This document shows positions 1,283 through 56,910 of a DNA stretch of 64,000 nt, piece after piece (the first letter of the stretch is position 1; each line of letters begins with the position of its first letter). Under the pieces are notes generated by a model. The model made no database searches. It was not told the DNA's origin and worked only from the letters and a program-made list of their open reading frames with translations. The stretch is from NCBI GenBank assembly GCA_016781485.1, contig JADDQH010000004.1, forward strand, positions 629 through 64,628. Reading direction: 5' to 3'. The stretch comes from Chloroflexota bacterium (GTDB lineage: Bacteria; Chloroflexota; Limnocylindria; Limnocylindrales; CSP1-4). The position numbers were made by a program, and so were the translations under genes.

Positions 1283-2599
1283 ATGCCGGGGATCACGGCC
1301 CCCGTCTCACGCGCGGTCGGGCGTTTCACCGACCTCGCGCCCGATCTCCGGGGTCGCTTCCGGCGCCGAGGGGTGTTCGCGTTCCTGGCGGTCATGGGGC
1401 CCGGGCTCATCGCGGGGATCGCGGGCAACGACGCCGGTGGGATCGCGACGTACTCCGCCGTCGGGTCACGGACCGGGTTCGGGTTGCTGTGGTTGTTCCC
1501 CGTCACCATCGTCGTGCTCGCCGTGGTCCAGGAGATGGCGGCGCGGCTCGGAGTGGTCACCGGCCAGGGTCTCTCCGACCTCATCCGCGACCGATTCGGC
1601 GTCCGGTGGACCGCGTTCGCGATGCTCGTGCTGCTCGTCGCGAACCTCGCGAACACCGTGGCCGAGTTCGCCGGCGCAGCCGCCGCGCTGGAGATCTTCG
1701 CGGTCCCGCGGCTGATCACCGTGCCGATCGTCGCGGTCGCGATCTGGGCTCTGGTCCTGTTCGCCAGCTACCGCGCCGTGGAGCGGGTGTTCCTGTCGGT
1801 GATGGTCGTGTTCCTTGCGTACATCGCGTCGGCATTCCTTGCCCGCCCCGATTGGGCGCAGGTCGGGCAGGCACTCGTGACCCCGAACCTCGCGGTGGGC
1901 GCCGAGACACTGTTGCTCATGGTCGCGTTCGTCGGCACCACGATCACGCCCTACATGCAGTTCTACCTGCAGTCGGCGGTCGCCGAGAAGGGGATCGATG
2001 AGGAGGAGCTGAAGCTGGAGCAGGCGGACGCGATCGGGGGGGCCGTCTGGACGAACGTGATCGCGCTGTTCATCGTCGTCGCGACGGCCCAGACGCTGTT
2101 CCTGAACGGGATCCGCGTGGAGGACGCGGCGCAGGCGGCGGAGGCACTCGGCCCGGTCGCGGGGAACCTGGCGCGGGTCCTGTTCGCGGTGGGGCTCTTC
2201 GGCGCGAGCGTGCTCGCCGCGACCATCATGCCCATCAGCACGGCCTTCGTCATCTGCGAGGCGTTCGGCTGGGAGTCGGGCGTCGGCAAGCGCTTCGCCG
2301 ACGCGCCGGCGTTCTTTGCGCTCTACACGTTCGTCCTGTTCGTGGGTGCGCTCGTCGTGCTCATCCCCGGGCTCCCGCTGCTGCGCGTCATCCTCGTCAG
2401 CCAGAACCTCCAGGGGCTGCTGCTCCCGGTCGTGTTGCTATTCATGCTGAAGCTCGTGAACGACCGCCGACTGCTCGGGCGGCACGTGAACGGCGTCAAG
2501 CGGAACCTCCTCGCCGCCGTCGCCGTCGGGCTCGTCATCCTGCTCGACCTGATGCTCCTCGGCTCGGCGGCGCTCGAGGCGGTCGGCCTCAGGACGTGA
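1283..2599 (+). CDS. NRAMP-family cation transporter with non-canonical metal-site motifs (NRMT-like, possible Mg2+ transporter)
   Basis: 438-aa polytopic ORF starting 6 nt after the CBS protein stop. TM1 region GPGLIAGIAGNDAGGIATYS aligns to the canonical GPG..S.GY.DPGN..T, so DPGN reads DAGG. TM6 region VGTTITPYMQFYLQS aligns to the canonical GA..MPHN..LHS, so the Met and His are absent. Confidence 0.8.
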   Translation: MPGITAPVSRAVGRFTDLAPDLRGRFRRRGVFAFLAVMGPGLIAGIAGNDAGGIATYSAVGSRTGFGLLWLFPVTIVVLAVVQEMAARLGVVTGQGLSDLIRDRFGVRWTAFAMLVLLVANLANTVAEFAGAAAALEIFAVPRLITVPIVAVAIWALVLFASYRAVERVFLSVMVVFLAYIASAFLARPDWAQVGQALVTPNLAVGAETLLLMVAFVGTTITPYMQFYLQSAVAEKGIDEEELKLEQADAIGGAVWTNVIALFIVVATAQTLFLNGIRVEDAAQAAEALGPVAGNLARVLFAVGLFGASVLAATIMPISTAFVICEAFGWESGVGKRFADAPAFFALYTFVLFVGALVVLIPGLPLLRVILVSQNLQGLLLPVVLLFMLKLVNDRRLLGRHVNGVKRNLLAAVAVGLVILLDLMLLGSAALEAVGLRT

Positions 2600-4263
2600 C
2601 CGTGCCCGAGCGTCGCTCGATGCCCCGACGGCCTCGTCTCGCGCGTCCGCTTCCGCTCCACCCGATCCTCCTCGCGGCTTACCCGATCCTCTTCCTGTGG
2701 TCCCAGAACCTTGCCGAGGTCACGCTCGCCGACGCCCTGCCTCCGCTTGCCCAGGTGACGGCGGCAACGCTTGCGCTCCTGACCGTCCTTTGGCTCCTGC
2801 TCCGGAACGCGGCCCGTGCAGCCATCATCGCGTCCGCACTCGTCGTCGCGTTCCTCACGTTCGGCCACGCTCAACGCCTGCTGGCGCCGCTCCGGGTAGG
2901 ACATCCCGTCCAATTCGGCGGGTCGCTCCTCTTCGTCGCGATCGCGGTGCTGTTCGCGCTTCGGTCGACTCGTTCGCTCGCGCCCGCCACCTCCGGCCTG
3001 AACATCGTGGCTGGCGTGCTCGTCGCGGTGACGCTCGTGTCGATCGTCCCGCGAGAGCTGTCGAGAGCGGGATCGGAACGCGGTGTCGCAGCTCCGACGA
3101 CGAGCGACGCGGAGGCCGGGCCCGCGGCGCCGAGAGATATCTACTACCTCGTCTTCGACCGGTACGGATCCGAGTCGTCACTCCGCCTCCGGTACGGCGT
3201 CGACAACGACCTCCCCGAGTGGCTCGTGCAGCAAGGGTTCTTCGTGGCCGACCGCAGCCACGCGAACTACGCGCGAACACCCCTCTCGCTCGCGACCTCG
3301 CTGAACATGAGATACCTCGACGATCTGACGAGTCGGTACGGGCGCGAGACCAACGACCTGACGCCCGTGTACGGGATGATCAAGGACCATTCCGTCGGGC
3401 GCCTCCTGAAGTCCAGGGGCTACCGCTACGTCCACATCGGTTCCTGGTGGGAAGCCACCAGGACAAGCCCGATCGCGGACGTCAACCTGAACGTCGCCGG
3501 CGAGTCCGAGTTCTCGTCCGTGTTCTACGACTCGACGATGCTGCCCTACCTGTTCGGACAGGCTGGCAAGAAGCGACCGACGCGACGCGAGGCGCACCGA
3601 GCCAGCGCGCTGTACCAGTTCGAACAGCTCGACAAGCTCGTTTCGATGCCCGGTCCGAAATTCGTGTTCGGACACGTGCTGCTCCCGCATCCGCCACTCG
3701 TGTTCCACGCCGACGGCTCGCCGATCACGCCGGCGGAACTCCGGAAGACGCCTGCTGAGGAGCTGTACAGGGAGCAGCTTGCGTTCACGAACGCGCGGAT
3801 CCGCCGACTCGTCGAGTCGCTTCTCAGCGGCCCGGAGGCTTCCAGGCCGATCGTGATCCTTCAAGCGGACGAAGGACCGTACCTCGAGGATCGCAAGCCG
3901 TCACAGGAGGACGCGTATCGGATCCGCTACGGGATCCTGAACGCCTTCTATCTTCCCGACCTCCAAGGCGCCGGCCCGTATCCGACGATCACTCCGGTCA
4001 ACGCCTTCCGGCTGTTGCTCAGTCGCTACTTCGGTGCCCACCTCCCGCTGCTGCCGGACCGCAGCTTCAGCTGGCCGACCGTATTCGCGCCGCATCCGAA
4101 GTACGACCAGCGCATATACGACTTCACGGAGATCACGCATCTGCTCGTGACGCCCTCGGGATCGATGCCGCAGTCGGCCTCGACGGTCCCGGCGAACAGG
4201 GTCAGGCCGAGGTCTTCTCCAAGGGGTAACCCGCAGCGTGCCAGGCGGGCACACCGCCGCTGA
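2596..4263 (+). CDS. Polytopic membrane protein with extracytoplasmic alkaline-phosphatase/sulfatase-fold domain (LtaS/EptA/OpgB-like), paralog A
   Basis: 555-aa ORF. The GTG start overlaps the transporter stop (GTGA). Hydrophobic N-terminal ~170 aa. Soluble domain motifs: DIYYLVFDRYGSESS, ANYARTPLSLATSLN, HVLLPHPP, LQADEGPY. Homologous along its full length to 12872-14578 and 14908-16524. Confidence 0.65.
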   Translation: MTVPERRSMPRRPRLARPLPLHPILLAAYPILFLWSQNLAEVTLADALPPLAQVTAATLALLTVLWLLLRNAARAAIIASALVVAFLTFGHAQRLLAPLRVGHPVQFGGSLLFVAIAVLFALRSTRSLAPATSGLNIVAGVLVAVTLVSIVPRELSRAGSERGVAAPTTSDAEAGPAAPRDIYYLVFDRYGSESSLRLRYGVDNDLPEWLVQQGFFVADRSHANYARTPLSLATSLNMRYLDDLTSRYGRETNDLTPVYGMIKDHSVGRLLKSRGYRYVHIGSWWEATRTSPIADVNLNVAGESEFSSVFYDSTMLPYLFGQAGKKRPTRREAHRASALYQFEQLDKLVSMPGPKFVFGHVLLPHPPLVFHADGSPITPAELRKTPAEELYREQLAFTNARIRRLVESLLSGPEASRPIVILQADEGPYLEDRKPSQEDAYRIRYGILNAFYLPDLQGAGPYPTITPVNAFRLLLSRYFGAHLPLLPDRSFSWPTVFAPHPKYDQRIYDFTEITHLLVTPSGSMPQSASTVPANRVRPRSSPRGNPQRARRAHRR

Positions 4264-5626: not shown

Positions 5627-5701
5627 CGCGCCGAGGATACCGCCACGACTCGTGTCGCCGCGGGCCACTGGACCGCGGACGCGGGGGAGAAGCGCCGGAG
5701 C

Positions 5702-7054: not shown

Positions 7055-7057
7055 ACG

Positions 7058-9205: not shown

Positions 9206-9486
9206 TGCGTTACCTCTTCATTACGCCAGTGGACACTGTCGTAGCCGCGGCCGACCCCTTGTGTCGATGCCGAAGCTGATGACCGCAGAGTGCATCGGGC
9301 ACGAGCGTCAGTGATCCTGGAAAGGGACAGAGCTCTCGCGACCTCAGCGAATGAGGCCGGTAGCGTCTGTGTCGGCGCAGTGCGGACGTGACGGCGCGTC
9401 CCCGGACTGCAGGCGGCAGGATAGCATCGACGCCAGATGCGGTCCGGTGAGGACCGAGGAGGGAGCGGAGGGCGTAGGCCCGAACG

Positions 9487-10689
9487 ATGGCGGAATCAGC
9501 GTCCAGGATCACGTCAGCCGGAGTGCGATGGGCCGAAGCAGCCCGTGAGCTCTCGCTTCCCCGGGCGGTCCTCGTGACGCTGCTCGCCAGCCGCCTGATG
9601 CTCACGGTGGTCGGGCTGCTGTCGCTCGCGCTGCTACCCCAGGATACCTTTCACGCCTTCCCCCACGACTTCCCCTACGACGCTTCTTCGAACCCGCTCG
9701 TCAACGCCTGGTCGCGGTGGGACGGCTACTGGTATCTACGGATCGCGAGCCAGGGGTATGACTACGTGCCGCACGGGGAATCGGCGGTCGCGTTCTGGCC
9801 GCTCTACCCGACGGTGCTCGCCGCCGTCGGGACGGTGCTCGGCGTCGGCGGCACGGACGCCCTCGCGGTGATCGGCATCGTGGTCTCGAACCTGGCGCTG
9901 CTCGTCGTCGTCTCCCTCTTCGTCCTCTTGGTCAGGCTGGACTTCGACGAGGGGATCGCGGCGCGCGCGGCGTCCTTCCTGCTCATCTTCCCGACCAGCT
10001 TCTTCCTCTCGGCTGTCTACGCGGAATCGCTCTTCCTCGCGCTTGCCATCGGCTCGCTGTATGCAGCGCGGACGGACCGGTGGTGGCTCGCAGGAGCCGT
10101 GGGCGGCGGCGCCGCGCTCACGCGCCCTCACGGCGTCCTGCTCGTGATCCCGCTGGTCATCGAGTACCTCGCACAGCGAGGCGTAACGCGCCGAGCGCTC
10201 CGTCCTGAGATCCTGGCGCTCGGGCTCGTGCCCGCCGGCGTCGCCGCGTATCTCGTGTATCTGGGCCTGCGGTTCGGGAACCCGTTCGCCGCGCTCGACG
10301 CACAGGCCGGCGGCTGGGGGCGGGCACTCACGGTCCCGTGGCAGGCCTTCGTCGACTTCTTCACCGGGGAGATCCATCTCCATGGAGGCGGCGACAACTC
10401 CCTGCTCGACCTCGTGTCGACCGTTGCGTTCCTCCTCCTCGCCGTTGCCTCGTGGCGGTTGCTGAGGCTGAGCTACGCAGTCTTCCTCAACCTGTTCCTC
10501 CTCGGTGCCGTCTCATCCGGGACGCTGTCCTCGCTGATCCGGGTGGAGGCGACGCTCTTCCCCGCGTTCATCGTGCTTGCAGTCATCGCCGACAGACGCC
10601 CGTGGGTCGGCCGCGCCTATGTCATCGTGTCGACGGCCCTGGCGGCCATCCTGATGGCGAGATTCGCGCAGTGGTACTGGGTGGCGTAG
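9487..10689 (+). CDS. PIG-V-like GT-C glycosyltransferase, paralog B
   Basis: 400-aa ORF. Motifs NAWSRWDGYWYLRIASQGYDY, SAVAFWPLYP, LIFPTSFFLSAVYAESLFLAL, ALTRPHG. Confidence 0.65.
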   Translation: MAESASRITSAGVRWAEAARELSLPRAVLVTLLASRLMLTVVGLLSLALLPQDTFHAFPHDFPYDASSNPLVNAWSRWDGYWYLRIASQGYDYVPHGESAVAFWPLYPTVLAAVGTVLGVGGTDALAVIGIVVSNLALLVVVSLFVLLVRLDFDEGIAARAASFLLIFPTSFFLSAVYAESLFLALAIGSLYAARTDRWWLAGAVGGGAALTRPHGVLLVIPLVIEYLAQRGVTRRALRPEILALGLVPAGVAAYLVYLGLRFGNPFAALDAQAGGWGRALTVPWQAFVDFFTGEIHLHGGGDNSLLDLVSTVAFLLLAVASWRLLRLSYAVFLNLFLLGAVSSGTLSSLIRVEATLFPAFIVLAVIADRRPWVGRAYVIVSTALAAILMARFAQWYWVA

Positions 10690-10751
10690 GGATGGTGGGC
10701 GCGAGGACGTCGCAGCATGGGGCTGGACGCGAGCGGCGAAACAGGCCGCTG

Positions 10752-11570
10752 CTAGCCTTTTCGCGTACTCGCAGTGCCCGCTGGCTCGGGCCGACCCGGG
10801 ACGAGGAGTCCCACTCCCGGACCTGACGCGCCCGGGACGTGGTTCGTCCGGTGCGCCATCGACCATTCCGCCGCCAGCTCGTCCAGGAGCGTATCCCCCG
10901 GCTCGTCGTCGTCCGAGACGATCAATCCGGACGGGGCCATGCACGGCCGAACCGTCCGGAACTCGAACTCCCGATGGGCGCGCGAATGATCCGAGTCGTG
11001 GATGAACAGGTCGAGCGGTGCGGCCTCTCCGGCCGCCGGGCCGAGCAGCCTCCGGCTGTCTCCCAGAAGCAGCGTCCACCGCGCCTTGAGCCTCTCCGGC
11101 ACCAGCCAGCCCGGCTCGGCGCCGAGCGGCAGATCGGTGCCCGGAAGATCGATGCTCGTGAGCGATCCGTGCCCGTTTCGCTCTAGCGCTCGCAGCAGCA
11201 GCGCCGTCGAGAGGCCGTCGTGGACGCCGGTCTCCAGGACCGACTTCGCCTTCGAGAGCCGTACCAGCGCATAGAGGATCTTGAAGCGTCCGAGGTCGAA
11301 CGTGTTCGCCCACTCCCGGCGTCCGCCGCGGTAGCGCTCCTGGAGCTCGGCGACGAACGATGCATCTCCCTCGATCTCCGCGAAGCACTCCTCGACCGTT
11401 TCGACATCGAGCCCCAGCGCCTCGGACACCAATGCGATGTCGGCGGGGCGCGAGGACGTCCCGTAGCGGTTGGAAAGACCGCTTCCGTCGCCGAGTGCGA
11501 ACCTCCGCAGGTGGCGCAGGAGCCGCCGCGGCCGAGTGAGGACGCGCACGACCGAGCCGGGGCCCTCCAT
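10752..11570 (-). CDS. Class I SAM-dependent methyltransferase
   Basis: Motifs SVLETGVHDGLSTALLLRAL ... SLTSIDL ... LDLFIHDSDH. Start taken at ATG 11570. An alternative GTG at 11618 would overlap the upstream GT4 stop by 8 nt. Confidence 0.55.
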   Translation of the reverse strand: MEGPGSVVRVLTRPRRLLRHLRRFALGDGSGLSNRYGTSSRPADIALVSEALGLDVETVEECFAEIEGDASFVAELQERYRGGRREWANTFDLGRFKILYALVRLSKAKSVLETGVHDGLSTALLLRALERNGHGSLTSIDLPGTDLPLGAEPGWLVPERLKARWTLLLGDSRRLLGPAAGEAAPLDLFIHDSDHSRAHREFEFRTVRPCMAPSGLIVSDDDEPGDTLLDELAAEWSMAHRTNHVPGASGPGVGLLVPGRPEPAGTASTRKG

Positions 11571-12858: not shown

Positions 12859-12864
12859 CATAAT
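12859..12864 (+). promoter_or_regulatory. Candidate -10 hexamer (CATAAT) placed 7 nt before ATG 12872; possible leaderless transcript
   Basis: CTGGCCATAATGCACGAGATGGAGGA. The same arrangement is conserved in front of paralog C (CTGGCCATAGTGGGATAGATGGACGGA). Confidence 0.3.
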
Positions 12865-12871
12865 GCACGAG

Positions 12872-14578
12872 ATGGAGGACGTGAGCCGGACGGAGCGGCG
12901 CGCGCCGCGGATCTCCCTGCCTCGCCCGCTTCCATTCCATCCCCTGCTTCTCGCGGCCTACTCGGTCCTGTTCCTGTGGTCACAGAACCTCGACGAGGCC
13001 ACGCTCGGAGATGTCACGCCGCCGCTCGTCCAGGTCGTGATCGCCGCGCTCGTCCTTGTCGGAGTGCTCACGCTCGTCCTGCGCGATGCGCGACGGGCTG
13101 CAGTCGTAGCGAGTGCCATCCTCGCCAGCTTCCTCGGGTTCGGCCACGTCGATCGTCTCCTCGCGCCTCTGCGTCTGGGTCAAGCGGCCCAGTTCGGCGG
13201 CTGGCTGGTCCTGATCGTGATCGCCGCCGCCTTCGCGCTTCGCGCGCGTCGATCGCTTGCACCCGCGACTTCGGCACTCAATGTCGTCGCGTTCGCCCTC
13301 GTCGCCGTCGCGCTGGTCACGATCGCCCCGCACGAGCTCTCCCGGATCGGGCGTGACGAGCCGAACACTGGCGCGCTTCCCCCTGCTGCGGCGTCGGCTA
13401 GCGGCGTAGGCACCCAGCGCGACATCTACTACCTCGTCCTCGACCGCTACGGATCGGAGTCCTCCCTTCGCCTCGATCATGGTTTCGACGACGATCTGCC
13501 GGAGTGGCTGGCCGCGCGCGGGTTCTTCGTCGCGCAGCAGTCCCACGCGAACTACGCGAGGACGGCTCTGTCGCTCGCCGCGACGCTCAACCTGCGGTAT
13601 CTCGACGAGCTGACGAGCCGCTACGGGCGGAAGACGGAGGACGTCACCCCCGCGTACCGGATGATCCGCAACAACGCCGTCGTTCCGTTCATCAAGTCGA
13701 GGGGATACCGCTACATCCATATCGGCTCCTGGTTCGAGGGGACCCGGACGAGTCCCCTCGCAGACGTCAACTTCAACGTGGGCGACGAATCGGAGTTCTC
13801 GTCCGTGTTCGCGGAAACGACCGCTCTGCCCGCGATCTCCGACATGCTCGGCCGGGAGAAGCGTTCACACAGGGAGAGGCACCGTGCCGCCGCCCTGTAC
13901 CAGCTGGAGAAGCTGAGCGAGGCGCGCGCCGTGCCCGGCCCGAAGTTCGTATTCGCGCACGTGCTGCTCCCGCACCAGCCCTACGTCTTCCGCTCCGACG
14001 GCGGTGTCGTCACCGCCGAGGAAGCACGGAGGATGCCCGAGAGCAGGCTCTACGAGGAGCAGCTCCAGTTCACGAAGGACCGGATCCGCGAGATCCTCGA
14101 GCCGCTGCTGAACGTCCCGGAGCCGTCGCGTCCGATCGTCGTCCTCCAATCGGACGAAGGACCGTACGTCCGCGCCGGCTTCCCTGGTTCCGCAGCCGAG
14201 CGGCTTCGGATCCGATACGGGATCCTCAACGCCTTCTATCTCCCTGGCGAGGCGAGTCGGCCTGGTTCGCCCGGCACGACGCCCTACCCGACGATCAGCG
14301 CCGTGAACACGTTCAGGATGCTCTTCAGCCGGTACTTCGCCGCTGATCTTCCACTCCTGCCGGACCGGAGTTACAGGTGGGTCAAAGGTGGGCTCTACGA
14401 CTTCAGGGACGTTACGGACGTCCTTATGGAGGGGGCGTCCGGAGGATCGACGCCGGCTACCCGTGCCCGAACGGGCGGCGCACCCCTAGCTGTGATTCCC
14501 GAGCACGTTGTTGGCATCGACGATCCCACACCGCGCTCGGCGGGCTCGCGCCCCACGCGGCGTTTGTCGACAACTTGA
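12872..14578 (+). CDS. Polytopic alkaline-phosphatase/sulfatase-fold membrane protein, paralog B
   Basis: Start chosen by alignment with paralog C (MEDVSRTERRAPRISLPRPLPFHPLLLAAYSVLFLWSQNLDEATL). Motifs DIYYLVLDRYGSESS, ANYARTALSLAATLN, HVLLPHQP, LQSDEGPY. The last ~30 codons read through the position where the relic copy at 17486-17608 has a stop (TAG 17605-17607), and the two copies differ by an indel there. Confidence 0.65.
   Translation: MEDVSRTERRAPRISLPRPLPFHPLLLAAYSVLFLWSQNLDEATLGDVTPPLVQVVIAALVLVGVLTLVLRDARRAAVVASAILASFLGFGHVDRLLAPLRLGQAAQFGGWLVLIVIAAAFALRARRSLAPATSALNVVAFALVAVALVTIAPHELSRIGRDEPNTGALPPAAASASGVGTQRDIYYLVLDRYGSESSLRLDHGFDDDLPEWLAARGFFVAQQSHANYARTALSLAATLNLRYLDELTSRYGRKTEDVTPAYRMIRNNAVVPFIKSRGYRYIHIGSWFEGTRTSPLADVNFNVGDESEFSSVFAETTALPAISDMLGREKRSHRERHRAAALYQLEKLSEARAVPGPKFVFAHVLLPHQPYVFRSDGGVVTAEEARRMPESRLYEEQLQFTKDRIREILEPLLNVPEPSRPIVVLQSDEGPYVRAGFPGSAAERLRIRYGILNAFYLPGEASRPGSPGTTPYPTISAVNTFRMLFSRYFAADLPLLPDRSYRWVKGGLYDFRDVTDVLMEGASGGSTPATRARTGGAPLAVIPEHVVGIDDPTPRSAGSRPTRRLSTT
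14370..14490 (+). repeat. Copy 1 of a ~121-nt direct repeat (3' terminal coding segment of paralog B)
   Basis: GTTACAGGTGGGTCAAAGGTGGGCTCTACGACTTCAGGGACGTTACGGACGTCC...GGCGTCCGGAGGATCGACGCCGGCTACCCGTGCCCGAACGGGCGGCGCACCCCTAGC. About 90% identical by eye to 17486-17608. Confidence 0.85.
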
Positions 14579-14907: not shown

Positions 14908-16524
14908 ATGGACGGAGACAGGCAGTCTCAGCGGCGCCGGTCGCGACTTGCGCTGCCTCGTCCGCTACCACTCCACCCCGTTCTCCTGGCCGCATACTCC
15001 GTCCTGTTCCTCTGGTCGGAGAACCTCGACGAGGCGACGCTCACAGACGTCGCCCCGCCACTGGTGCAGGTCGTCGCAGCCGCGCTCGCCGTTCTCGGGT
15101 TGCTTACGCTCGTCCTTCGCAATCGGCTCGGCGCCGCGGTCATCGCGAGCGCAGTCCTGGCCGGCTTCCTCGCGTTCGGTCACGTCGACAGGATCCTCGC
15201 GCCACTGCGGGTGACGCACGCCGTCCAGTTCGCCGGCTGGCTGATCCTGATCGCCGCGGCCGTCGCCCTCGCGCTTCGCCGGCGCGCGTCGCTGCCGCGG
15301 ATCACCTCGGCGCTTAACATCATGGCGTTCGCGCTCGTCGCCGTCGCGCTCGCGTCGATCATCCCGCATGAGCTGTCGCGCGCCGGGCGCGGCGACGCGA
15401 ACACCGCCGTCGTGTCGCCGACGGCGGCGCCGCCGGGAGAGGGTGTCCGGACGCAGCGCGATATCTACTACCTGGTCTTCGATCGCTACGGGTCCGAGTC
15501 GTCGATCCTGCGGAACCAGGGGCTGGACAACGATCTGCCGGAGTGGCTCACGGAGCACGGGTTCTTCGTCGCGGCGGACTCCCACGCCAACTACGCGAGG
15601 ACGGCCCTCTCGCTCGCCTCGACGCTGAACCTCAAGTATCTCGATGAGCTGACGAACACGTACGGGCGCAACACCGACGACGTGACGCCCACATACCGGA
15701 TGATCCGGAACAATGCGGTCGTCCCGTTCCTGAAGTCCGTCGGGTACCGCTACGTGCACCTCGGCTCGTGGTTCGAGCCCACCCGGACGAGCCCGCTTGC
15801 CGACGTCAACCTGAACGTTCGCGACGACTCCGAGTTCGCCTCCGTGTTCGTCGAGACGACCGTCCTGCCCGCGATCACCGAGATGCTCGGGCAGAAGGTC
15901 TCGCACCGGGAACGGCACCGAACGGCGGCGCTCTACCAGCTGGAGAAGCTGCGGGAGATCCCGGCCCTGCCGGGGCCGAAGTTCGTGTTCGCGCACGTGC
16001 TGCTCCCGCACCATCCGTACGTGTTCCGCGCCGACGGCGGAATCGTGACCGAGGAGGAGGCGCGAGCGATGCCCGAGAGTCGGCGGTTCGAGGAGCAGCT
16101 GAAGTTCACGAACGACCGGATACGCGAGATCCTCGCGCCGCTGCTCGAGCTCCCCGAGCCGTCTCGCCCGATCATCGTGCTCCAGGCTGACGAAGGCCCG
16201 TACGTCCAGGGGCGCGGCCGCCCGGAGGTGGACTGGGTCAACATCCGTTACGGGATCCTAAACGCCTTCTATCTCCCGGACGGCGCAGCGGCGGGTCCGG
16301 GGAGCGAGCCGTACGCCGCGATCAGCTCCGTGAACACGTTCAGGATGCTATTCAACCGATACTTCGGTGCTCGGGTCCCCCTCCTGCCGGACAGAAGTTA
16401 TTGCGCTCGTTCCCGTACTTCAGGCCGAGCTGAGCGATGCCGTCGTGAAGCATCAGCGAACCACACGCGGAAGGAAGGCCTCTACGACTTCGTCGACGTG
16501 ACGCACCTTCTCGCGAGGCGGTAG
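14908..16524 (+). CDS. Polytopic alkaline-phosphatase/sulfatase-fold membrane protein, paralog C
   Basis: 538-aa ORF. N-terminus MDGDRQSQRRRSRLALPRPLPLHPVLLAAYSVLFLWSENLDEATL. Motifs DIYYLVFDRYGSESS, ANYARTALSLASTLN, HVLLPHHP, LQADEGPY. Carries a paralog-specific 25-codon linker at 16402-16476. Confidence 0.65.
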   Translation: MDGDRQSQRRRSRLALPRPLPLHPVLLAAYSVLFLWSENLDEATLTDVAPPLVQVVAAALAVLGLLTLVLRNRLGAAVIASAVLAGFLAFGHVDRILAPLRVTHAVQFAGWLILIAAAVALALRRRASLPRITSALNIMAFALVAVALASIIPHELSRAGRGDANTAVVSPTAAPPGEGVRTQRDIYYLVFDRYGSESSILRNQGLDNDLPEWLTEHGFFVAADSHANYARTALSLASTLNLKYLDELTNTYGRNTDDVTPTYRMIRNNAVVPFLKSVGYRYVHLGSWFEPTRTSPLADVNLNVRDDSEFASVFVETTVLPAITEMLGQKVSHRERHRTAALYQLEKLREIPALPGPKFVFAHVLLPHHPYVFRADGGIVTEEEARAMPESRRFEEQLKFTNDRIREILAPLLELPEPSRPIIVLQADEGPYVQGRGRPEVDWVNIRYGILNAFYLPDGAAAGPGSEPYAAISSVNTFRMLFNRYFGARVPLLPDRSYCARSRTSGRAERCRREASANHTRKEGLYDFVDVTHLLARR

Positions 16525-17657: not shown

Positions 17658-18821
17658 TCAGCGACTGCTCGCCGCCTCAGCCTCCCACGCTCCTTCGCCA
17701 TCCCTCTCGAGCACCGCCCGCAGCTTCTCCAGGTCGCGGTCGCCCACGTGGTCGAGCACTGTCCATCGTCCCGGGCGGGTGCTCCGCCCGTTCGCGACGG
17801 CCGCCGTGAACTCGTCATTGCTGATGCCGAGTTCGCGCGGGAGCACCGGCAGCCCGACAGCGCGGTAGAAGCTCACCAGCCGCTGACAAGCGTCCCCCCT
17901 CAGCAGATACGCGGCGACCGTTCCGAGGGCGACCTGCAGCCCGTGGGGGCGTGGGGTCGGCAGGAGACGGTCAAGGGCATGGCTGATGAGGTGCTCGGAC
18001 CCGCTCGCCGGTCTCGACGACCCCGCCATCTCCATCGCGATCCCACTGAGGATGAGGCCGCGGATCAGTTTCTGTCGGAAGGCCGGGTCCCCGAGATCGG
18101 CGTCGTCCTCGATCACCGACGAGGCCGCGGCCTCAGCCGTGAGGCAGGCGAAGTCGTCGATCTCCTCCCCTACCGTGCGATGCGCCAGCCGCCAGTCGAG
18201 GACCGCCGAGAGGTTCGAGACGAGATCACCGAGACCCGACAGCCAGGTCACCGTCGGCGCCTGGCCGAGCACCTCCATGTCTACGGCGATCCCCGCGGGA
18301 ATGCGCGCGCCGAGCGAATGGGGACGCCCGTCGGGTGTCACCATGACCGCGACGGGCGAGCAGATGCCGTCGCTCGAAGCCTGCGTGGGGATGCTCACGA
18401 GCTCCACCTCTCGCTCGGCCGCCGCGAGCTTCGCGACATCGACGACGCGGCCGCCGCCGACGCCCACGACGAAGTCGGGGCGCTCGCGATCGATCGAGCC
18501 GACGACGTGGCGCACTGATCCTTCGCTGTTCGTGGCCACCCCGGGGCTAGACGCGAGCACGCATTCCGTCACCTGCAACCGGAGCGACCGCGCCTCCGCA
18601 GCGAGTGACGTGGCGTAGCCGGTCGCGGATGCGGCGCCGGAATGCACGAACAGGAACCGTGCATCGCCGCCGTCCGCGAGCTCACGCAGGACGACGGCGA
18701 CCGCAGCGCGCCCGCTCACGATGCGCAGCAGCCGCGGGATCCGGATCGAGCGATGGCGGGAGGTCGCGCCGATCACCGCGTGAGCAACGGCTCCCTCGAA
18801 GGACAGCGCGTCGATGAGCAC
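17658..18821 (-). CDS. sn-Glycerol-1-phosphate dehydrogenase family (EgsA/AraM-like, Fe/Zn-ADH superfamily)
   Basis: 387-aa ORF. Motifs GVGGGRVVDVAKLAA, VSIPTQASSDGICSPVAV, LGDLVSNLSAVLDWRLA, SGSEHLISHALD. These match the G1PDH signature blocks as I remember them. Confidence 0.7.
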   Translation of the reverse strand: MLIDALSFEGAVAHAVIGATSRHRSIRIPRLLRIVSGRAAVAVVLRELADGGDARFLFVHSGAASATGYATSLAAEARSLRLQVTECVLASSPGVATNSEGSVRHVVGSIDRERPDFVVGVGGGRVVDVAKLAAAEREVELVSIPTQASSDGICSPVAVMVTPDGRPHSLGARIPAGIAVDMEVLGQAPTVTWLSGLGDLVSNLSAVLDWRLAHRTVGEEIDDFACLTAEAAASSVIEDDADLGDPAFRQKLIRGLILSGIAMEMAGSSRPASGSEHLISHALDRLLPTPRPHGLQVALGTVAAYLLRGDACQRLVSFYRAVGLPVLPRELGISNDEFTAAVANGRSTRPGRWTVLDHVGDRDLEKLRAVLERDGEGAWEAEAASSR

Positions 18822-18989
18822 GGGCGGCCGGTCCGGAACCGGACGTTACAGGTGCTGGCGCCCTTGACCGTCAGGCGCGCTTCGTGCGCGGCCGTTTGGA
18901 CGGGGAGCGTCGGTCGGTCGACGGCGCTGGGGTCGCGGAAGGAGCGGCCGTCGGCGTGGTTCCCCTCCAACGTCGGGGAGACGCAGGGG

Positions 18990-19163
18990 TCAGTGGTCTC
19001 GCGCCGGCTCGTGCTCTCCGCGGCGTCCGACACGCCGGATCGCGGAGATGCCCTTTGCGATCTGAGCCCGGAAGAAGAGGGGGATCGCGACGGCGCCCGC
19101 GATGAGCGCCTGGACGATGATGGCCCCCGTTCCGGGGTCGATGTACGCGAACAGGGGATGCAT
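18990..19163 (-). CDS. Small (57 aa) single-pass membrane protein, absent from the supplied ORF track
   Basis: Hand translation: MHPLFAYIDPGTGAIIVQALIAGAVAIPLFFRAQIAKGISAIRRVGRRGEHEPARDH-stop (TGA at 18990-18992). Shine-Dalgarno GGAGGA lies 4 nt upstream of the ATG (19168-19173). Sits between the G1PDH and cytidylyltransferase genes on the same strand. Confidence 0.5.
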   Translation of the reverse strand: MHPLFAYIDPGTGAIIVQALIAGAVAIPLFFRAQIAKGISAIRRVGRRGEHEPARDH

Positions 19164-19271
19164 CTGCTCCTCCAGGGGATGTCGGTCTCCTCGCCGGCGA
19201 TCTCGACACCGGCAGGGTGGCGACTTCGGAGCTTAGCACGAGCGGCCGACACAACCACGATCGAGGTACGG

Positions 19272-20012
19272 TCAGCGCTTACCGTCGAGCTCCTTTGCGA
19301 TCGCCGTCGCCCTCTCGTAGTCCGCGAGGTCGTCGATCTCCGTCCACGCTCGGCGCGCCACGGGCAGCGGGCGGATGACGAGCCGGGAGGCGACGGCGTC
19401 GATAGCGTCCTCGTAGTACAGGTCGCCCCCGCCCTCGTCGACGAGACGTCGCGCCGCCGCGATGACCTCTGCCGCACCCGCTGCATCGAACCGTGCGATC
19501 CCGATGTACTCGCCCACCGACGTCGCCGGCGACAGCTTCTTGCTGATGCGGCTCACGGACCCGTCGCCGTCGAGTTCGACCTTCATCTCCTCCGCGCCCA
19601 GTGGTTCGTCCGTATCCACCACCAGCCAGGAGCCGCGGGACGCGGCTGCGACATCGGCGAGGATGCGCGCGTCGAACACGATGTCGGAGTTGAGCAGGCA
19701 TAGACCGTGCGACATCTCGTCGGCGGCCGTCAGGAACGACACGATGTTGTTCGCAGCGTCGAACTGCGGGTTGAACCGGCAGCGGACCTCGAGCCCCCAT
19801 TCACGCCGCGCCACGAAGTCGTCGACCAGCTCCGCCCGGTGACCCGTGACCACGACGGCCTCGGGAAACGAAGCGCCCGCGAGCGCCTCCAGCGAGCGCC
19901 CGAGGAGCGTCCTCCCCGCGACCTCGACGAGGGCTTTGGGTCGGTCGTGGGTGAGCGACGACAGGCGCCGACCGAGCCCCGCCGCGAGGATGACCGCGAC
20001 CGGAAGCGTCAT
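19272..20012 (-). CDS. Alcohol/sugar-phosphate cytidylyltransferase (NTP_transferase fold, LicC/IPCT-like)
   Basis: 246-aa ORF. N-terminal VAVILAAGLGRRLSSLTHDRPKALVEV (G-x-G-x-R ... K nucleotide-binding signature). C-terminal WTEIDDLADYERA. Confidence 0.7.
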   Translation of the reverse strand: MTLPVAVILAAGLGRRLSSLTHDRPKALVEVAGRTLLGRSLEALAGASFPEAVVVTGHRAELVDDFVARREWGLEVRCRFNPQFDAANNIVSFLTAADEMSHGLCLLNSDIVFDARILADVAAASRGSWLVVDTDEPLGAEEMKVELDGDGSVSRISKKLSPATSVGEYIGIARFDAAGAAEVIAAARRLVDEGGGDLYYEDAIDAVASRLVIRPLPVARRAWTEIDDLADYERATAIAKELDGKR

Positions 20013-20287
20013 CTACCCATCGCATCCTGCCGCCGGCGTCGACGCGGTCGGGGCGCAGGCAAGGTGGTACGCCCGAGAGTAGTCACAACGTCCTCCAAGC
20101 CCCCGCCGCACCGCGCTCCTGATCGCGTTGTTGCGGCTGCTGTCTTCGATGATATCGACCGCCTGGTCCCTCTCGGGCACTACGAGAGAGGGACGGCGAC
20201 TGCGCGTCGGTGCGCGAGGATCACGGTCGTCGGTGACCGCAGCCGAGTGATCCACGCCGCCGCGGACGCGTCGTCGACGGTGGATCC

Positions 20288-21151
20288 GTGAGTCAGCGCG
20301 AGCCGGTAGAGTTGAGCCGTGCCCCTCGCGACCCTCTGCCCGCTCGGCCGACCGTCGCTCGACCGGCTCGTGGCGCACTAGGCGTGGCGCCTGCTGGCGC
20401 CGTCGGGTTCCGTGGTAGGGCGCGCGAGTTCTGGCGACGCTACCAGCATCCCGAGGGCCTGTTCTGGCTGAGGCGGGTGAACCACCCACTCGGGGCGCTC
20501 ATCGCCCTGGTCCTCCTGCCCACCCGGGTAACACCCAACGCGGTGAGCGTGGCCGGACTCGTGGTCCACGTCGCGGGCGCGCTGTTCGTGGCGTTGCTGT
20601 CGCCTCCCGTCCCGATCACTGCTGCGCTGCTCGTCATCGTGTCGTGGCAGCTCGCGTTCTCGCTCGACTGCGCCGACGGCCCCCTGGCCCGTGCTCGCGC
20701 CCAAGCGAGCGCCTTCGGCGCCTGGCTCGACCAGCTGATCGACGTCGCGTCGCACGCCGCTGTCTACACCGGACTCACGATCTTCCTCGTACGTGCCCTC
20801 GCGCTCGACGGGATCACGTCCGCGCTGCTCGCCTCCGTCGTCGTCACGCTGAGCCTGCTCCAGACCTTCTCGACCTGGCAGCGACAGGCGCTGATAGCCG
20901 GCGCCCCTGTCGGCGAAGCTCCTTCCACCATGCTCCGACTGGTACATGCGGCACGTCACCTCGTCGACTACGGCGCGTTCCTGTTCCTCGCGTCGGTGCT
21001 GCTCCTGTGGCCGCCCGCGCTGCTCGTGTTCCTGCTGCTCACGGCCGTGCTGAACCTCCTCTACGTGATGACGCAGATCGCTCTCAACTGGAGACGTCAC
21101 AGGAGGGAAAGCCGGGCGGCGTGGACGGACGGGAAAGGCCAACAGCTCTGA
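20288..21151 (+). CDS. CDP-alcohol phosphotransferase family membrane enzyme
   Basis: Exact family signature D-x2-D-G-x2-A-R-x8-G-x3-D-x3-D in LDCADGPLARARAQASAFGAWLDQLIDV. Multiple TM segments. The start is uncertain (GTG 20288). Confidence 0.85.
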   Translation: MSQREPVELSRAPRDPLPARPTVARPARGALGVAPAGAVGFRGRAREFWRRYQHPEGLFWLRRVNHPLGALIALVLLPTRVTPNAVSVAGLVVHVAGALFVALLSPPVPITAALLVIVSWQLAFSLDCADGPLARARAQASAFGAWLDQLIDVASHAAVYTGLTIFLVRALALDGITSALLASVVVTLSLLQTFSTWQRQALIAGAPVGEAPSTMLRLVHAARHLVDYGAFLFLASVLLLWPPALLVFLLLTAVLNLLYVMTQIALNWRRHRRESRAAWTDGKGQQL

Positions 21152-21183: not shown

Positions 21184-21927
21184 ATGACGGGGGGTGGGCT
21201 CGAGAGTGGTTCGTTCCTGACGTCCTCCTCCCGTTCGCAGCGACCCGGATCGCCCTCTCCCTCGTAGGGCTCCTGGCACTCACCCTCGTGACTCCGCGCG
21301 TCTTCGTTTCTCCGAACCAGCTCCCCGCGACGCCCCATCTCGTCAATGCGTAGTCCTACCGGGACTCCGGCTGGTACCTCGTGATCGCGCGCGACGGCTA
21401 CAGCTACATCCCCGGGCATCGATCGGCCGTGGGCTTCTGGCCACTCTTCCCATTCCTTATGCGCGCTCGGTACCCTGATCGGCGCGAACGACACCGCGGG
21501 GCTGCTGACGATCGGGTTCGTCGTCTCGAACGTCGCACTGCTCGTCGGGCTCGTCTACCTCGTCGCGCTCGTGCGGCTCGACTTCGACCGCGCCACCGCG
21601 GCACGCGCGGTGCTGTATCTCCTGGTGTTCCCGACGACACTGTTCCTGTCGGCCGTGTATGCCGAGTCGCTGTTCCTCGCGCTCACGGTGGCAGCCTTCT
21701 ACCACGCGCGGCGCGGGCAGTGGTGGATCGCGGGCGCGCTCGGAGGGCTCGCCGCGCTCGCACGGCCACATGGTGTGCTGCTCGCGCTGCCGCTCGCCGT
21801 CGAGTACCTCGCGCAGCGGGACTTCGACCTGCGCGCGATCCGCGGGAACATCCTCGCGCTCGCCGGGAACGAGCATGACATCCCCGCGTGGCGACGGAAC
21901 GCCTCGCGGCTGAAGCGACGTGCCTAG
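21184..21927 (+). pseudogene. Decayed PIG-V-like GT-C glycosyltransferase (closest to paralog C)
   Basis: Homologous frame reads WAREWFVPDVLLPFAATRIALSLVGLLAL...HLVNA-stop-SYRDSGWYLVIARDGYSYIPGHRSAVGFWPLFPFLMRA, then shifts frame to LGTLIGANDTAGLLTIGFVVSNVALLVGLVYLVALVRLDFDRATAARAVLYLLVFPTTLFLSAVYAESLFLAL...RPHGVLLALPLAVEYLAQR. Four lesions: ATG 21184 is out of frame across a G6 run (21189-21194); TAG at 21351-21353 where the paralogs have Trp; a frameshift near 21465; homology ends near 21875, so the 3' half is missing. Confidence 0.8.
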
Positions 21928-22661
21928 CGACGGCGGGGGATACGGGCGCGAAACGCCTGGACGTACCAGTACAGGTAATGGGGAAGCCACGCGCGGAGCT
22001 TGAACCTGCTCCGGCCGGCGGTCCGATCACGCCAGATCGTCGGCACCTCGGCCATCGTCCGGCCTCCGAGGAACGCCTTCACCGACAGCTCGATGCCGAG
22101 TTCGAACCCTCCACGGCTCTCGATGGCCACCTCGTCGAGGAACGACCGGCTGTAGAGCTTGAAGTTGTTCGTGGCGTCGTGGATCGGTACCCCGGCGAGC
22201 CAGTGGAGCGAGAGTCCGGCGCATCTGCTCAGCAGCCGTTTGAGCCGGGGCCCGCCGATCTGGCGGCCGCCTCGCATGTACCGGCTCGCCGCAACGACGG
22301 CAGCTCCCCGCCGAGCCGCTGCGACCATGCGATCGACCGAGGAAAGGTCGTCGGAGCCATCCGCCATGGACACTAGGATGTAGCGGCCGGTCGAGGCGGC
22401 GATGCCTGCTTTCATCGCGTTCAGCGCGCCTCTTCCGAACGTGTTGTGGAGCGGGCGGACGTGCCGCATCTCGGCCTGCATCGAGCGCACGACAGGGAGC
22501 GTGGTGTCCTCGGGGAAGTCGTAGACGACGAGGATCTCGTGTGGTGTCTCGACACGCGCCGCGAAGTCGCGAAGGACCGGCGCGATGTTGTCGCCCTCGT
22601 TGTAGACGGGGATCACGACCGAGAGCTCCGGCGTTGCCGGTGCCCGGGCGGTCTCAGTCAC
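21924..22661 (-). CDS. GT2 polyprenyl-phosphate glycosyltransferase (DPM1/ArnC/GtrB-like)
   Basis: Motifs LSVVIPVYNEGDNIAPVL ... ILVVYDFPEDTT ... VSMADGSDD. Start taken at GTG 22661, overlapping the upstream stop by 8 nt (GTGACTGA). Confidence 0.8.
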   Translation of the reverse strand: MTETARAPATPELSVVIPVYNEGDNIAPVLRDFAARVETPHEILVVYDFPEDTTLPVVRSMQAEMRHVRPLHNTFGRGALNAMKAGIAASTGRYILVSMADGSDDLSSVDRMVAAARRGAAVVAASRYMRGGRQIGGPRLKRLLSRCAGLSLHWLAGVPIHDATNNFKLYSRSFLDEVAIESRGGFELGIELSVKAFLGGRTMAEVPTIWRDRTAGRSRFKLRAWLPHYLYWYVQAFRARIPRRR

Positions 22662-23682
22662 GCTCCGCGGCCGCGGGCTCGCGCCGCGCAGCGGAAGCGA
22701 GCCTGGAAAGGCTCGAGAGCGACCCCACGCCACCGCCTCCGATGGCAGCCAGCGAGACTGCTCCTGCAACGGCGAGGGGAAGGGTCGTGAACACGTGTGC
22801 GAGCACGGCGAGCGCAAGTGCCTGGCTGCCGGGCACGCCGAGTGCCGTCGCCGCCGAGATGACCGCGACCTCATACGTGCCCACGAACGCGGGCGCCGAG
22901 GGTACGGCGGTGCCCAGCACCGTGACCGCCGCGATCAACAGTGCGGCGGGCCACGTGAGGTCGATGGCGACGGACTGTGCGACGAGCCGGAACGTCGCGC
23001 CCTCCAGCAGCCACGTTCCACAGCTGATGCCGGCGGCGGCCAGGACAGCAGGACGGCGGTGGGCTCCCGCAGAGCCGACGGCGAACCGCTCGAGGCGCGT
23101 CTCGAGCCAGTGGCGCCGCTGGGCGCCGAACACGGCGAGCGGACGGGCGAGGAGCGGCACGAGTCGCACGATGCCCGTCGTAGAGAGCACGAAAACGACG
23201 GTCGCTCCACCTAGCGCAGCGATGCCGGCGATCCGGACCAGCCACTCGGGCGCGTCGAGGCTGATGGCCGCCAGGAACGCGATGCCGGCAAGCGTCGCGA
23301 GGTCCACGACGCGCTCGATCACCACCGACCCGAACGCCTCGCTGCCGTGCAGCCCCTCGCGTCGAGAGACGAGAAAGGCGCGGATCGGCTCACCGAGTCG
23401 AGCCGGCAACACCGCGTTCCCGAGATACCCCACGAGAAGGCTCGGGGCGACGACCCGCACGGGCACGCGCGCCCCGTCGGCACGACGCGGCAGGAGCAGC
23501 TGCCAGCGGACGGAACGGAGCACGAGCTGGGAGGTGACGATGGCCAGGGTCGCGAGGAGTGGGGACACATCCGCCGCGCGAACGGCCCGCTCGGCGGCTG
23601 GCAGATCCATCGAGCGGGCGATGAGCCACAGGGACGCGGCGCTCGCTGCGATCCCCACCGCCGCAAGCACGAGGCCCCGCAT
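22654..23682 (-). CDS. Flippase-like membrane protein (lysyl-PG synthase TM-region/UPF0104 family)
   Basis: Polytopic. Motifs RSVRWQLLLP, LVGYLGNAVLPARLGEPIRAFLVSRREG. Start ATG 23682, 2 nt after the upstream stop. Confidence 0.6.
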   Translation of the reverse strand: MRGLVLAAVGIAASAASLWLIARSMDLPAAERAVRAADVSPLLATLAIVTSQLVLRSVRWQLLLPRRADGARVPVRVVAPSLLVGYLGNAVLPARLGEPIRAFLVSRREGLHGSEAFGSVVIERVVDLATLAGIAFLAAISLDAPEWLVRIAGIAALGGATVVFVLSTTGIVRLVPLLARPLAVFGAQRRHWLETRLERFAVGSAGAHRRPAVLAAAGISCGTWLLEGATFRLVAQSVAIDLTWPAALLIAAVTVLGTAVPSAPAFVGTYEVAVISAATALGVPGSQALALAVLAHVFTTLPLAVAGAVSLAAIGGGGVGSLSSLSRLASAARREPAAAERD

Positions 23683-37902: not shown

Positions 37903-37906
<4 letters not shown>

Positions 37907-56584: not shown

Positions 56585-56910
56585 CAGGGACACGTACGCG
56601 ACCCGTGCACGCGAGCGGAGGGATGGCGAGGAACGGTGGTCCGGAGTCCGGACGGCTGACGAGGAGGAGCCCACGAGGACCGACCCTACCACATGGACGG
56701 AAGAACGGAAGTTCGGTTTGTACTCGCAAGAGAGCCGCCGTCGCCGTGGTCGAGCATGCGAGGAAGACAAAGCGTCCGGTCGGAGCGTCGCAGCTGCGCG
56801 CGGTGCGAACCGGGCGCTACTGACACGGCACGCCCGGTCCCTGGCGGCGACGATCTTCGTGCTGGTCACGCTCTCCAGCGACGGCCCTCGGCAGCGACTA
56901 CGATGCCCGG

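Follow-up and report, generated by a model that had tools for sequence, protein, structure and literature searches.

The 64,000-nucleotide stretch of contig JADDQH010000004.1 analysed here (the window; G+C content 67–72%) stems from a Chloroflexota bacterium of the Limnocylindrales. It harbours three genes that appear to belong together: an EgsA-like dehydrogenase of the glycerol-1-phosphate dehydrogenase (G1PDH) family, a cytidylyltransferase (CTase) of the LicC/PntC/IPCT type (COG1213) and a CDP-alcohol phosphotransferase (CDP-AP). The reading favoured here, with a probability of roughly 0.6, is that the trio is a self-contained module that would decorate or build an envelope glycopolymer with glycerophosphate, independently of glycerol-3-phosphate (G3P), TagD, TagF and phosphatidylglycerol. 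Judging by its family, residues and phylogeny, the dehydrogenase would reduce dihydroxyacetone phosphate (DHAP) to sn-glycerol-1-phosphate (G1P). The CTase, to which operon coupling and partner swapping assign the second step, would then join G1P and CTP into CDP-glycerol, whose configuration is presumably sn-1. Finally the CDP-AP, in view of its adjacency and intact motif, would transfer glycerophosphate at the cytoplasmic face to a hydroxyl group on an acceptor embedded in the membrane, with release of CMP. The most likely candidate for this acceptor is a glycan intermediate of the surrounding Wzx/Wzy/LCP pathway carried on undecaprenyl; the alternative is a glycolipid. We infer the stereochemistry of the glycerol, the substrate of the CTase and the acceptor of the CDP-AP from sequence comparison. 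The outline from DHAP through G1P and CDP-glycerol to transfer had been proposed in a first-pass annotation of the window; comparative genomics supports it as a prediction, through a conserved cassette with exchangeable partners, a CTase displacement in one locus (L032), agreement at all diagnostic residues of the dehydrogenase and a set of absences.

The strongest evidence comes from the manner in which the genes are combined across genomes. A profile scan with the dehydrogenase, covering one genome per GTDB species, returned at least 572 relatives; the best 80, joined by contigs collected earlier, gave the 84 loci analysed. A CTase homologue lies directly beside (upstream of) the dehydrogenase gene, on the same strand, in 36 of the 84 loci, here termed class A, all of which fall into one clade. 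Stop and start codons of the pair often overlap, and the shared stretch measures 4 bp in L003, L005 and L006. Bacterial class A hosts include Chloroflexota, Solirubrobacterales and other Actinomycetota, Bacillota (Thermoactinomycetaceae, Fictibacillus), WOR-3, Verrucomicrobiota (Verrucomicrobiales) and Coprothermobacter, and the archaeal hosts belong to the Nitrosopumilales and Nitrosomirales. The transferase adjoining the pair is a CDP-AP in 22 of the 36 loci, a TagF-like Glyphos_transf protein (PF04464) in six and LicD in one (L006); among the other seven, the contig ends early in three. Genes for glycan assembly surround the cassette in 32 loci.

In L032, from a member of the Saprospiraceae (Bacteroidota), tblastn and Pfam place Wzx, a sulfotransferase, LicD, a TagD-type CTP_transf_like protein and the G1PDH-like gene in this order. 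The LicC-type CTase appears to have been non-orthologously replaced here by a TagD-type enzyme, a member of the family known to make CDP-glycerol. Because the donor-making pair is constant, the transferases using a CDP donor are interchangeable and the CTase can be displaced in this way, the product of the cassette is predicted to be CDP-glycerol. These patterns support the view of the CTase–G1PDH pair as the conserved donor-making cassette of a widespread family, in which the transferase (CDP-AP, TagF-like or LicD) would be the interchangeable part.

The dehydrogenase matches Pfam Fe-ADH_2 (91.6 bits) and Fe-ADH. Its top NCBIfam model is the G1PDH model NF002022 (246.5 bits, E 3.7e-73), which scores three times higher than the second, glycerol dehydrogenase GldA (82 bits). 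The ranking of structures in the PDB runs from 3ce9 (171 bits) through the archaeal G1PDH entries 4rgq, 4rfl and 5fb3 (136–138 bits; E 4e-39 for 4rgq) down to GldA (at most 66 bits). The 84 homologues were aligned with a segment of M. jannaschii EgsA, an AraM-like protein from the ara operon of Priestia and E. coli GldA, and 12 diagnostic positions were compared: the zinc ligands D199, H277 and H293, N203, the loop S269-R270-P271-x-S273-G274, H281, R349 and R352. At all 12 the window enzyme has the residue of M. jannaschii EgsA; nine of them are missing in E. coli GldA. The metal ligands are universal in the alignment; N203, the loop, H281, R349 and R352 are common to archaeal EgsA and class A and are absent or different in GldA. 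Each of the 35 class A sequences compared has R270, R349 and R352, which would bind the substrate phosphate. In a rough neighbour-joining distance tree the class A clade is sister to archaeal EgsA, with the AraM-like protein as the outermost, most distant branch and GldA as outgroup. As AraM lies further out than archaeal EgsA, G1PDH activity brackets the class A clade. The enzyme is predicted to use NAD(P)H for the conversion of DHAP to G1P, and the choice of G1PDH over glycerol dehydrogenase made from the letters alone is sustained by model ranking, residues and tree alike. Homologues lack roughly the first 15 residues, so that the GTG at 18776 is the probable start of translation. The closest homologues are found in metagenome-assembled genomes of Chloroflexota and Candidatus Limnocylindrales. 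A six-residue insertion, ASSPGV, occupies residues ~90–95 of the window protein and is absent from 19 of 19 aligned homologues.

A separate branch of the tree, class B (neighbour clustering yields 25 loci, a profile search 29), is characterized by a HAD phosphatase gene (PF06888/PF12710) immediately upstream of the dehydrogenase; no CTase homologue was found in these loci even at E < 1. The hosts are Clostridia, gut Alphaproteobacteria, Omnitrophota and others. Among 25 sequences examined, 12 keep R270 and 13 keep R352; the enzymes may serve a route from DHAP through G1P to glycerol or act on a non-phosphorylated substrate. As a model for the window gene, class B was rejected: it forms a separate clade, shows no CTase and has often lost two of the three arginines. 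The source of structure 3ce9 is C. acetobutylicum; the scan assigns related loci from Clostridium to class B, and the tree was built without 3ce9. A dehydrogenase homologue on a D. vulgaris megaplasmid has no CTase or transferase neighbours.

The archaeal carriers deserve separate mention, as G1P is the backbone of archaeal lipids (PMC4244643). Two metagenome-assembled genomes of Nitrosopumilales/Nitrosomirales display the order Wzx, G1PDH-like gene, CTase and CDP-AP (L018, 5365–8017; L019, 7992–10733), and other Nitrosopumilaceae (L046, L066, L068) contain an EgsA-type G1PDH without cassette. This distribution suggests that in archaea the cassette module and the canonical egsA gene are separate.

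The CTase exceeds the cut-offs of both NTP_transf_3 (PF12804, 56.4 bits) and NTP_transferase (PF00483, 44.6 bits). Its top PDB matches are PntC-AEPT (6pd1) and LicC (1jyk), followed by IPCT (2xme). The N-terminal signature (L)AAGxGxR...PK is present: ILAAGLGRRL...DRPKALVEV aligns with AIILAAGLGTRL...NTPKALV of LicC. The enzyme is predicted to convert CTP and G1P into CDP-glycerol, with both CTP specificity and substrate deduced from the coupling to G1PDH and from the TagD-type replacement in L032.

The CDP-AP scores 31.9 bits against PF01066 (cut-off 22) and carries at residues 127–152 the full motif DCADGPLAR-x8-G-x3-D-x3-D, which agrees with the general form DxxDGxxAR-x8-G-x3-D-x3-D. Its hydropathy profile reveals about six hydrophobic segments, its nearest NCBIfam matches are PIP/AIP synthases and its top PDB match is AF2299. 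With these results the family assignments of the first-pass annotation stand for all three genes, upheld by Pfam, NCBIfam and PDB searches. The gene is the only candidate for a CDP-donor phosphotransferase in the 64 kb. It is predicted to move glycerophosphate from CDP-glycerol to a membrane-embedded acceptor, a role suggested by the adjacency in class A and by close relatives that keep the trio. The latter were sought in a metagenome scan with full-motif CDP-APs: six of six close relatives (at least 55% identity) have an adjacent CTase, and the dehydrogenase as well where the contig is long enough. Distant relatives (25–48% identity) often have a LicC-like CTase without a G1PDH, with neighbour annotation in these high-GC contigs being partial.

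In L121 (5016–9854) a CDP-AP relative is followed by a fusion of PepM (phosphoenolpyruvate mutase, PEP-mutase) with an NTP_transf_3 CTase and by a class V aminotransferase, a set which we take to be the aminoethylphosphonate activation module of Rice et al. 2019. Since CDP-AP relatives are found with either G1PDH or PepM neighbours, this CDP-AP lineage and the LicC-type CTase would handle small head-groups, the neighbouring gene defining which one. In the window the defining gene encodes a G1PDH, and the transferred group is therefore predicted to be glycerophosphate.

Many class A loci accommodate, next to a complete-motif copy, a second and shorter CDP-AP paralog without the fourth catalytic Asp (for instance ...G-x3-D-x3-G/I/H; L003, 9068–10683; L035, 6272–7045; L039; L049; L056; L071; L088, 7737–8516). 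This short form could be a non-catalytic partner or follow an altered mechanism; the window CDP-AP keeps all four motif Asp. Just 3' of the window gene, at 21571–21927 (+), there is a 118-aa open reading frame that matches Mannosyl_trans2 weakly and is probably a pseudogene or a piece of a GT-C gene.

Because the window has one complete-motif CDP-AP and a Wzx/Wzy/LCP system, the favoured outcome would be single glycerophosphate additions on an undecaprenyl-linked repeat unit. Several points weigh against this interpretation. With NF002022 the dehydrogenase falls short of 413, the curated equivalog cut-off, and the usual products of CDP-AP enzymes are lipids or solutes and not decorations of glycans. 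The spacing between CTase and dehydrogenase genes in the window is ~450 bp, including a small reading frame, with no translational coupling here. A dedicated second dehydrogenase, should archaea whose lipids are already built on G1P keep one, could hint at a different substrate. In addition, Gtp1, the reductase of a pneumococcal pathway considered below, is said to have been found by Wang et al. in 2010 to act on non-phosphorylated dihydroxyacetone.

The independence from TagD and TagF claimed in the first-pass annotation holds for the window: profile or tblastn searches of the 64 kb found no TagD (PF01467), TagF (PF04464), LicD or HAD gene, the TagD tblastn query being an approximate sequence that did detect the Pfam-confirmed gene of L032. 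For the cassette in general the claim fails, given the TagF-like neighbours in six loci. The TagD/TagF and TarIJ/TarL wall teichoic acid systems of Bacillota share with the module the conversion of a polyol phosphate into a CDP-polyol followed by transfer to a lipid-linked glycopolymer, and a setting of TagO-like, LCP and exporter genes. The differences concern all three components: the module would draw its glycerol phosphate from G1PDH (sn-1) and not from G3P, its CTase is of the LicC/COG1213 and not the TagD/COG0615 type, and the window transferase is a polytopic CDP-AP instead of a TagF-fold enzyme. The LicC/LicD phosphocholine and PntC (CMP-aminoethylphosphonate) systems resemble it in the CTase family (1jyk, 6pd1) and in the architecture of head-group gene, CTase and transferase; L006 and L032 have LicD as the partner, and a PepM–CTase fusion adjoins the CDP-AP relative of L121. 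In contrast to these systems, the head-group enzyme of the module is a G1PDH and the predicted group is glycerophosphate, not phosphocholine or aminoethylphosphonate.

Among the alternatives, the one that survives best is lipid synthesis of the Kennedy type, which is judged unlikely. The CDP-AP would join CDP-glycerol with diacylglycerol or a glycolipid to yield either a glycerophospho-glycolipid or phosphatidylglycerol, in which the linkage of the head-group is sn-1 by nature; the lipid could in turn act as glycerophosphate donor for sulfatase-fold enzymes of the EptA/LtaS kind on the outer side of the membrane. Lipid head-group synthesis is the classical role of CDP-APs, and PIP/AIP synthases and AF2299 are the nearest matches. 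Three sulfatase-superfamily paralogs lie nearby with orthologues beside the cassette in L009 and L010, and the locus encodes many extracytoplasmic GT-C enzymes, whose donors are lipid-linked. However, the cassette is elsewhere paired with TagF-like or LicD proteins, which modify glycans and not diacylglycerol, and the gene sets of Thermoactinomycetaceae and Streptomyces contain a glycosyltransferase and a TagGH-like ABC exporter, pointing to a polymer. The sulfatase-like genes, moreover, accompany the cassette in Limnocylindrales only.

A pathway through CDP-2-glycerol or another polyol appears improbable. A Gtp1-like reaction would then turn dihydroxyacetone into glycerol, or another keto-phosphate would be reduced, and the CTase would activate glycerol-2-phosphate or another alditol phosphate. 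The precedent is the pneumococcal 15A/23F pathway (Gtp1-Gtp2-Gtp3 plus WchX), in which a dehydrogenase and a nucleotidyltransferase lie beside a glycerol-phosphotransferase in a Wzx/Wzy capsule locus. The 23F order of wchX (glycerol phosphotransferase), gtp1 (dehydrogenase), gtp2 (nucleotidyl transferase) and gtp3 (phosphotransferase) (PMC3493582, PMC1391919) resembles the LicD–CTase–dehydrogenase loci L006 and L032, Gtp1 and Gtp2 being likened by gene order and not by sequence. The equivalog score of the dehydrogenase, too, would fit. Nevertheless, the pneumococcal pathway needs Gtp3 for phosphorylation at C2 of glycerol, and no Gtp3-like phosphotransferase, kinase or HAD gene was found in the window, within 10 kb on either side of the module or in any of the 36 cassette loci; the HAD profiles gave no match in the window or in class A. 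The basic residues specific to G1PDH are invariant in the cassette clade and frequently lost in the HAD-linked clade, and the partner in L032 is a TagD-type glycerol-phosphate CTase.

Synthesis of compatible solutes is very improbable and was rejected as the main explanation on gene context. The CDP-AP would in this case join CDP-glycerol with a soluble alcohol phosphate into diglycerol phosphate or glycerophospho-inositol, as in Aquifex and Archaeoglobus. The solute enzymes (IPCT/DIPPS, Aquifex AQ1367/1368, Archaeoglobus) do combine a CTase with a CDP-AP-family enzyme that uses a small CDP-alcohol donor, including CDP-glycerol; they are the only characterized precedent in this family for CDP-glycerol or CDP-inositol as donor (Rodrigues et al. 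2017, as cited in PMC8262930), and IPCT/DIPPS and AF2299, the best structural relative of the CDP-AP, are among the best matches of the window proteins. The Archaeoglobus donor derives preferentially from G1P, according to work cited in PMC8262930. However, their products are cytoplasmic solutes of hyperthermophiles, whereas the module occurs in glycopolymer loci of mostly mesophilic soil and freshwater lineages, is unfused and has a dedicated G1PDH; genes for inositol-phosphate synthase and a solute phosphatase were not found nearby, the glycan-assembly context prevails in class A, and TagF and LicD partners would make no sense for solutes.

The supply of archaeal-type ether lipids, the manner in which bacterial G1PDH homologues have been interpreted so far (PMC6431249, PMC4244643), was rejected as scarcely credible: the dehydrogenase, similar in family and predicted reaction to AraM of Bacillus and archaeal EgsA, would feed a PcrB/GGGPS-type prenyltransferase beside an unrelated CTase and CDP-AP, yet no prenyl-glycerol-phosphate synthase (GGGPS/PcrB) or UbiA-type gene occurs among the window genes scanned with Pfam or in the annotated neighbour clusters, 36 loci show a coupling of CTase and dehydrogenase, pointing to a CTase rather than a prenyltransferase as recipient of the product, and the AraM-like sequence sits on the most distant branch.

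Glycerophosphate modification of glycopolymers, the preferred reading, may take a more elaborate form in cultivable organisms. Searches with tblastn against plasmid and chromid records located the module in Streptomyces and Nonomuraea. In S. fungicidicus (L088, NZ_CP023408.1) the cluster extends from 4144 to 11199 of the locus, corresponding to 192857–199912 of the record, between galE/idi and the hopanoid genes hpnCDE. It encodes, in this order, a CDP-AP/DUF5941 protein, a 'phosphocholine cytidylyltransferase family' protein, an 'iron-containing alcohol dehydrogenase', a CDP-AP, a glycosyltransferase, an ABC permease and an ABC ATPase. Pfam DUF5941 is the C-terminal domain of the 605-aa CDP-AP that heads the conserved Streptomyces cluster, and no mention of it was found in the literature searched. 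The Thermoactinomycetaceae set comprises a GT2 glycosyltransferase, CDP-AP, CTase, G1PDH, an ABC-2 permease, an ABC ATPase and a long CDP-AP. This composition suggests that both versions are putative pathways for teichoic-acid-like polymers exported by a TagGH-like ABC system.

A bolder and decidedly tentative proposal is that the CTase–G1PDH–CDP-AP set constitutes a third machinery for glycerophosphate polymers, in which sn-1 teichoic-acid-like chains would be made from CDP-sn-1-glycerol by a primase and a polymerase of the CDP-AP fold. Its fuller form would be that of Streptomyces and Thermoactinomycetaceae, with the second, DUF5941-bearing CDP-AP, the glycosyltransferase and the TagGH-like exporter. 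If true, it would explain polyglycerophosphate lipoteichoic acid in Actinomycetota devoid of LtaS, such as Streptomyces and Thermobifida, and the large 'bacterial G1PDH clan' would serve envelope polymers and not archaeal-type lipids. The route to this lipoteichoic acid in LtaS-less actinobacteria has been an open question since 2009 (PMC3196553), and the candidate genes named here in cultivable Streptomyces now make it testable.

The literature searched holds no relevant description of the trio, of SCO6752-57 or of CDP-alcohol transferases in teichoic acid synthesis, in keeping with the novelty presumed for the pathway in the first-pass annotation. A cell-wall polysaccharide locus of Schaalia with a TagD-like CTase and a CDP-alcohol transferase has been reported at annotation level only (PMC11032452). 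The overall logic is already known from TagD/TagF, TarIJ/TarL, LicC/LicD and PntC, and CDP-APs that use CDP-glycerol from the solute pathways of Aquifex and Archaeoglobus. New elements would be a G1PDH as source of glycerol phosphate, a LicC-type CTase acting on it and a transferase of the CDP-AP fold in a glycopolymer context.

In a 2021 paper on teichoic acids and capsules, bacterial CDP-glycerol is derived from G3P via TagD, and free G1P and CDP-1-glycerol are regarded as essentially absent in bacteria (PMC8262930). Phosphotransferases of three families that use CDP donors accompany the cassette, which spans two archaeal orders and at least six bacterial phyla; this speaks against an absence of CDP-1-glycerol in bacteria. 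The deep-branching bacterial G1PDH clade, discussed only with regard to the lipid divide (PMC6431249), gains in the module a concrete candidate function. The enzymes might also be of use as a supply of enantiopure CDP-1-glycerol for glycoconjugate synthesis.

The layout of the window agrees with the first-pass annotation: the three reading frames lie at the coordinates claimed (Table 1), the peptides quoted are present in their translations, and the CTase and dehydrogenase genes are co-directional with the CDP-AP gene divergent. Divergent promoters are presumed to lie between the CTase and CDP-AP genes, and the same divergent arrangement recurs in L010, L016, L022, L028, L034, L061 and L093–L096. 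The 57-aa protein encoded between CTase and dehydrogenase represents a conserved small gene with the motif FAYIDPGTG...IIQALIAG, homologues of which directly follow sulfatase-like genes in L009 (5492–5596) and L010 (14253–14411; tblastn E 9e-13 and 8e-16, respectively).

Table 1. Features of the window and groups of related loci (window positions unless a locus is named).
Feature	Position	Strand	Basis or remarks
G1PDH-family (EgsA-like) NAD(P)H dehydrogenase	17658..18821	-	387 aa; Pfam, NCBIfam and PDB matches, residues, neighbour-joining tree
Single-pass membrane protein (MHPLFAYIDPGTGAIIVQALIAG...)	18993..19163	-	57 aa; gene call on source contig; between CTase and dehydrogenase
LicC/PntC/IPCT-type (COG1213) CTase	19272..20012	-	246 aa; Pfam and PDB matches, cassette position
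Divergent intergenic region, CTase/CDP-AP	20013..20287		275 bp; reading-frame coordinates
CDP-AP, ~six transmembrane segments	20288..21151	+	287 aa; PF01066, motif, hydropathy
Sulfatase-superfamily paralog 1, membrane-anchored, EptA/MCR-1/LtaS-like architecture	14908..16524	+	Foldseek; no Pfam match
Sulfatase-superfamily paralog 2	12863..14578	+	no Pfam match; orthologue L009:3694-5370 matches Pfam Sulfatase, 33.6 bits (cut-off 25)
Sulfatase-superfamily paralog 3, ~13 kb from module	2596..4263	+	Pfam Sulfatase 24.8 bits, just below cut-off 25
Wzy_C (O-antigen ligase/polymerase-like) paralogs	31664-33211, 33290-34639, 37903-39429
LPG_synthase_TM proteins	22654-23682, 42487-43479
Class B loci	L030, L031, L036-L038, L045, L047, L048, L055, L059, L062-L065, L067, L072, L073, L076-L081, L085, L087
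Giant-protein loci	L029 ~2230 to contig end; L033; L034 4330-7506 and downstream; L061 9308-17005

Nearly the whole window is filled by an envelope-glycan super-locus of ~55 kb. It accommodates GT4 and GT2 glycosyltransferases, several GT-C enzymes, a Wzx flippase, the three Wzy_C and two LPG_synthase_TM proteins, UDP-glucose dehydrogenases, a GDP-mannose dehydratase, epimerases, initiators of the WbaP and WecA/TagO types and two LCP ligases. The wall-glycopolymer context ascribed to the trio at the outset is hence confirmed by the Wzx, Wzy_C, glycosyltransferase, LCP and initiator genes around it. The multiplicity of Wzy_C and LPG_synthase_TM proteins suggests several distinct glycans or extensive extracytoplasmic modification.

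The first-pass annotation had also pointed to three LtaS/EptA-like paralogs next door. Their existence stands, and they share 56–69% identity (68% between paralogs 1 and 2, 56% between paralog 3 and the others), whereas their family assignment is weakly supported, with borderline Pfam scores and no significant PDB match (threshold E 0.1). Single-sequence searches of the PDB gave no match up to E = 1, and the best hit of a family profile was an arylsulfatase (E 0.18, 13.5 bits). An AlphaFold2 model of paralog 1, built with the three window paralogs, is poor (pLDDT 55) and consists of N-terminal helices and an alpha/beta domain; the Foldseek matches of this poor model all belong to the sulfatase/alkaline phosphatase superfamily, including full-length MCR-1, EptA and LtaS, with TM-scores of 0.3–0.38. 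Sulfatase-like orthologues near the cassette are confined to L009 and L010, and this co-location in three Limnocylindrales loci, the sole basis for a connection, makes the paralogs possibly tied to the module.

Two kinds of large protein complete the survey. In four metagenome-assembled genomes of Actinomycetota the G1PDH-like gene is followed immediately downstream by one for a giant protein that lacks any Pfam domain and whose length ranges from 1058 to more than 2500 aa (Table 1). The window itself encodes a 1467-aa protein at 49794–54197 (-), in which Pfam recognizes nothing but a PMT_2 (GT-C) segment close to the N-terminus; its gene lies between a GT2 gene with DUF2304 (48742–49797) and the second LCP gene (55544–56869).

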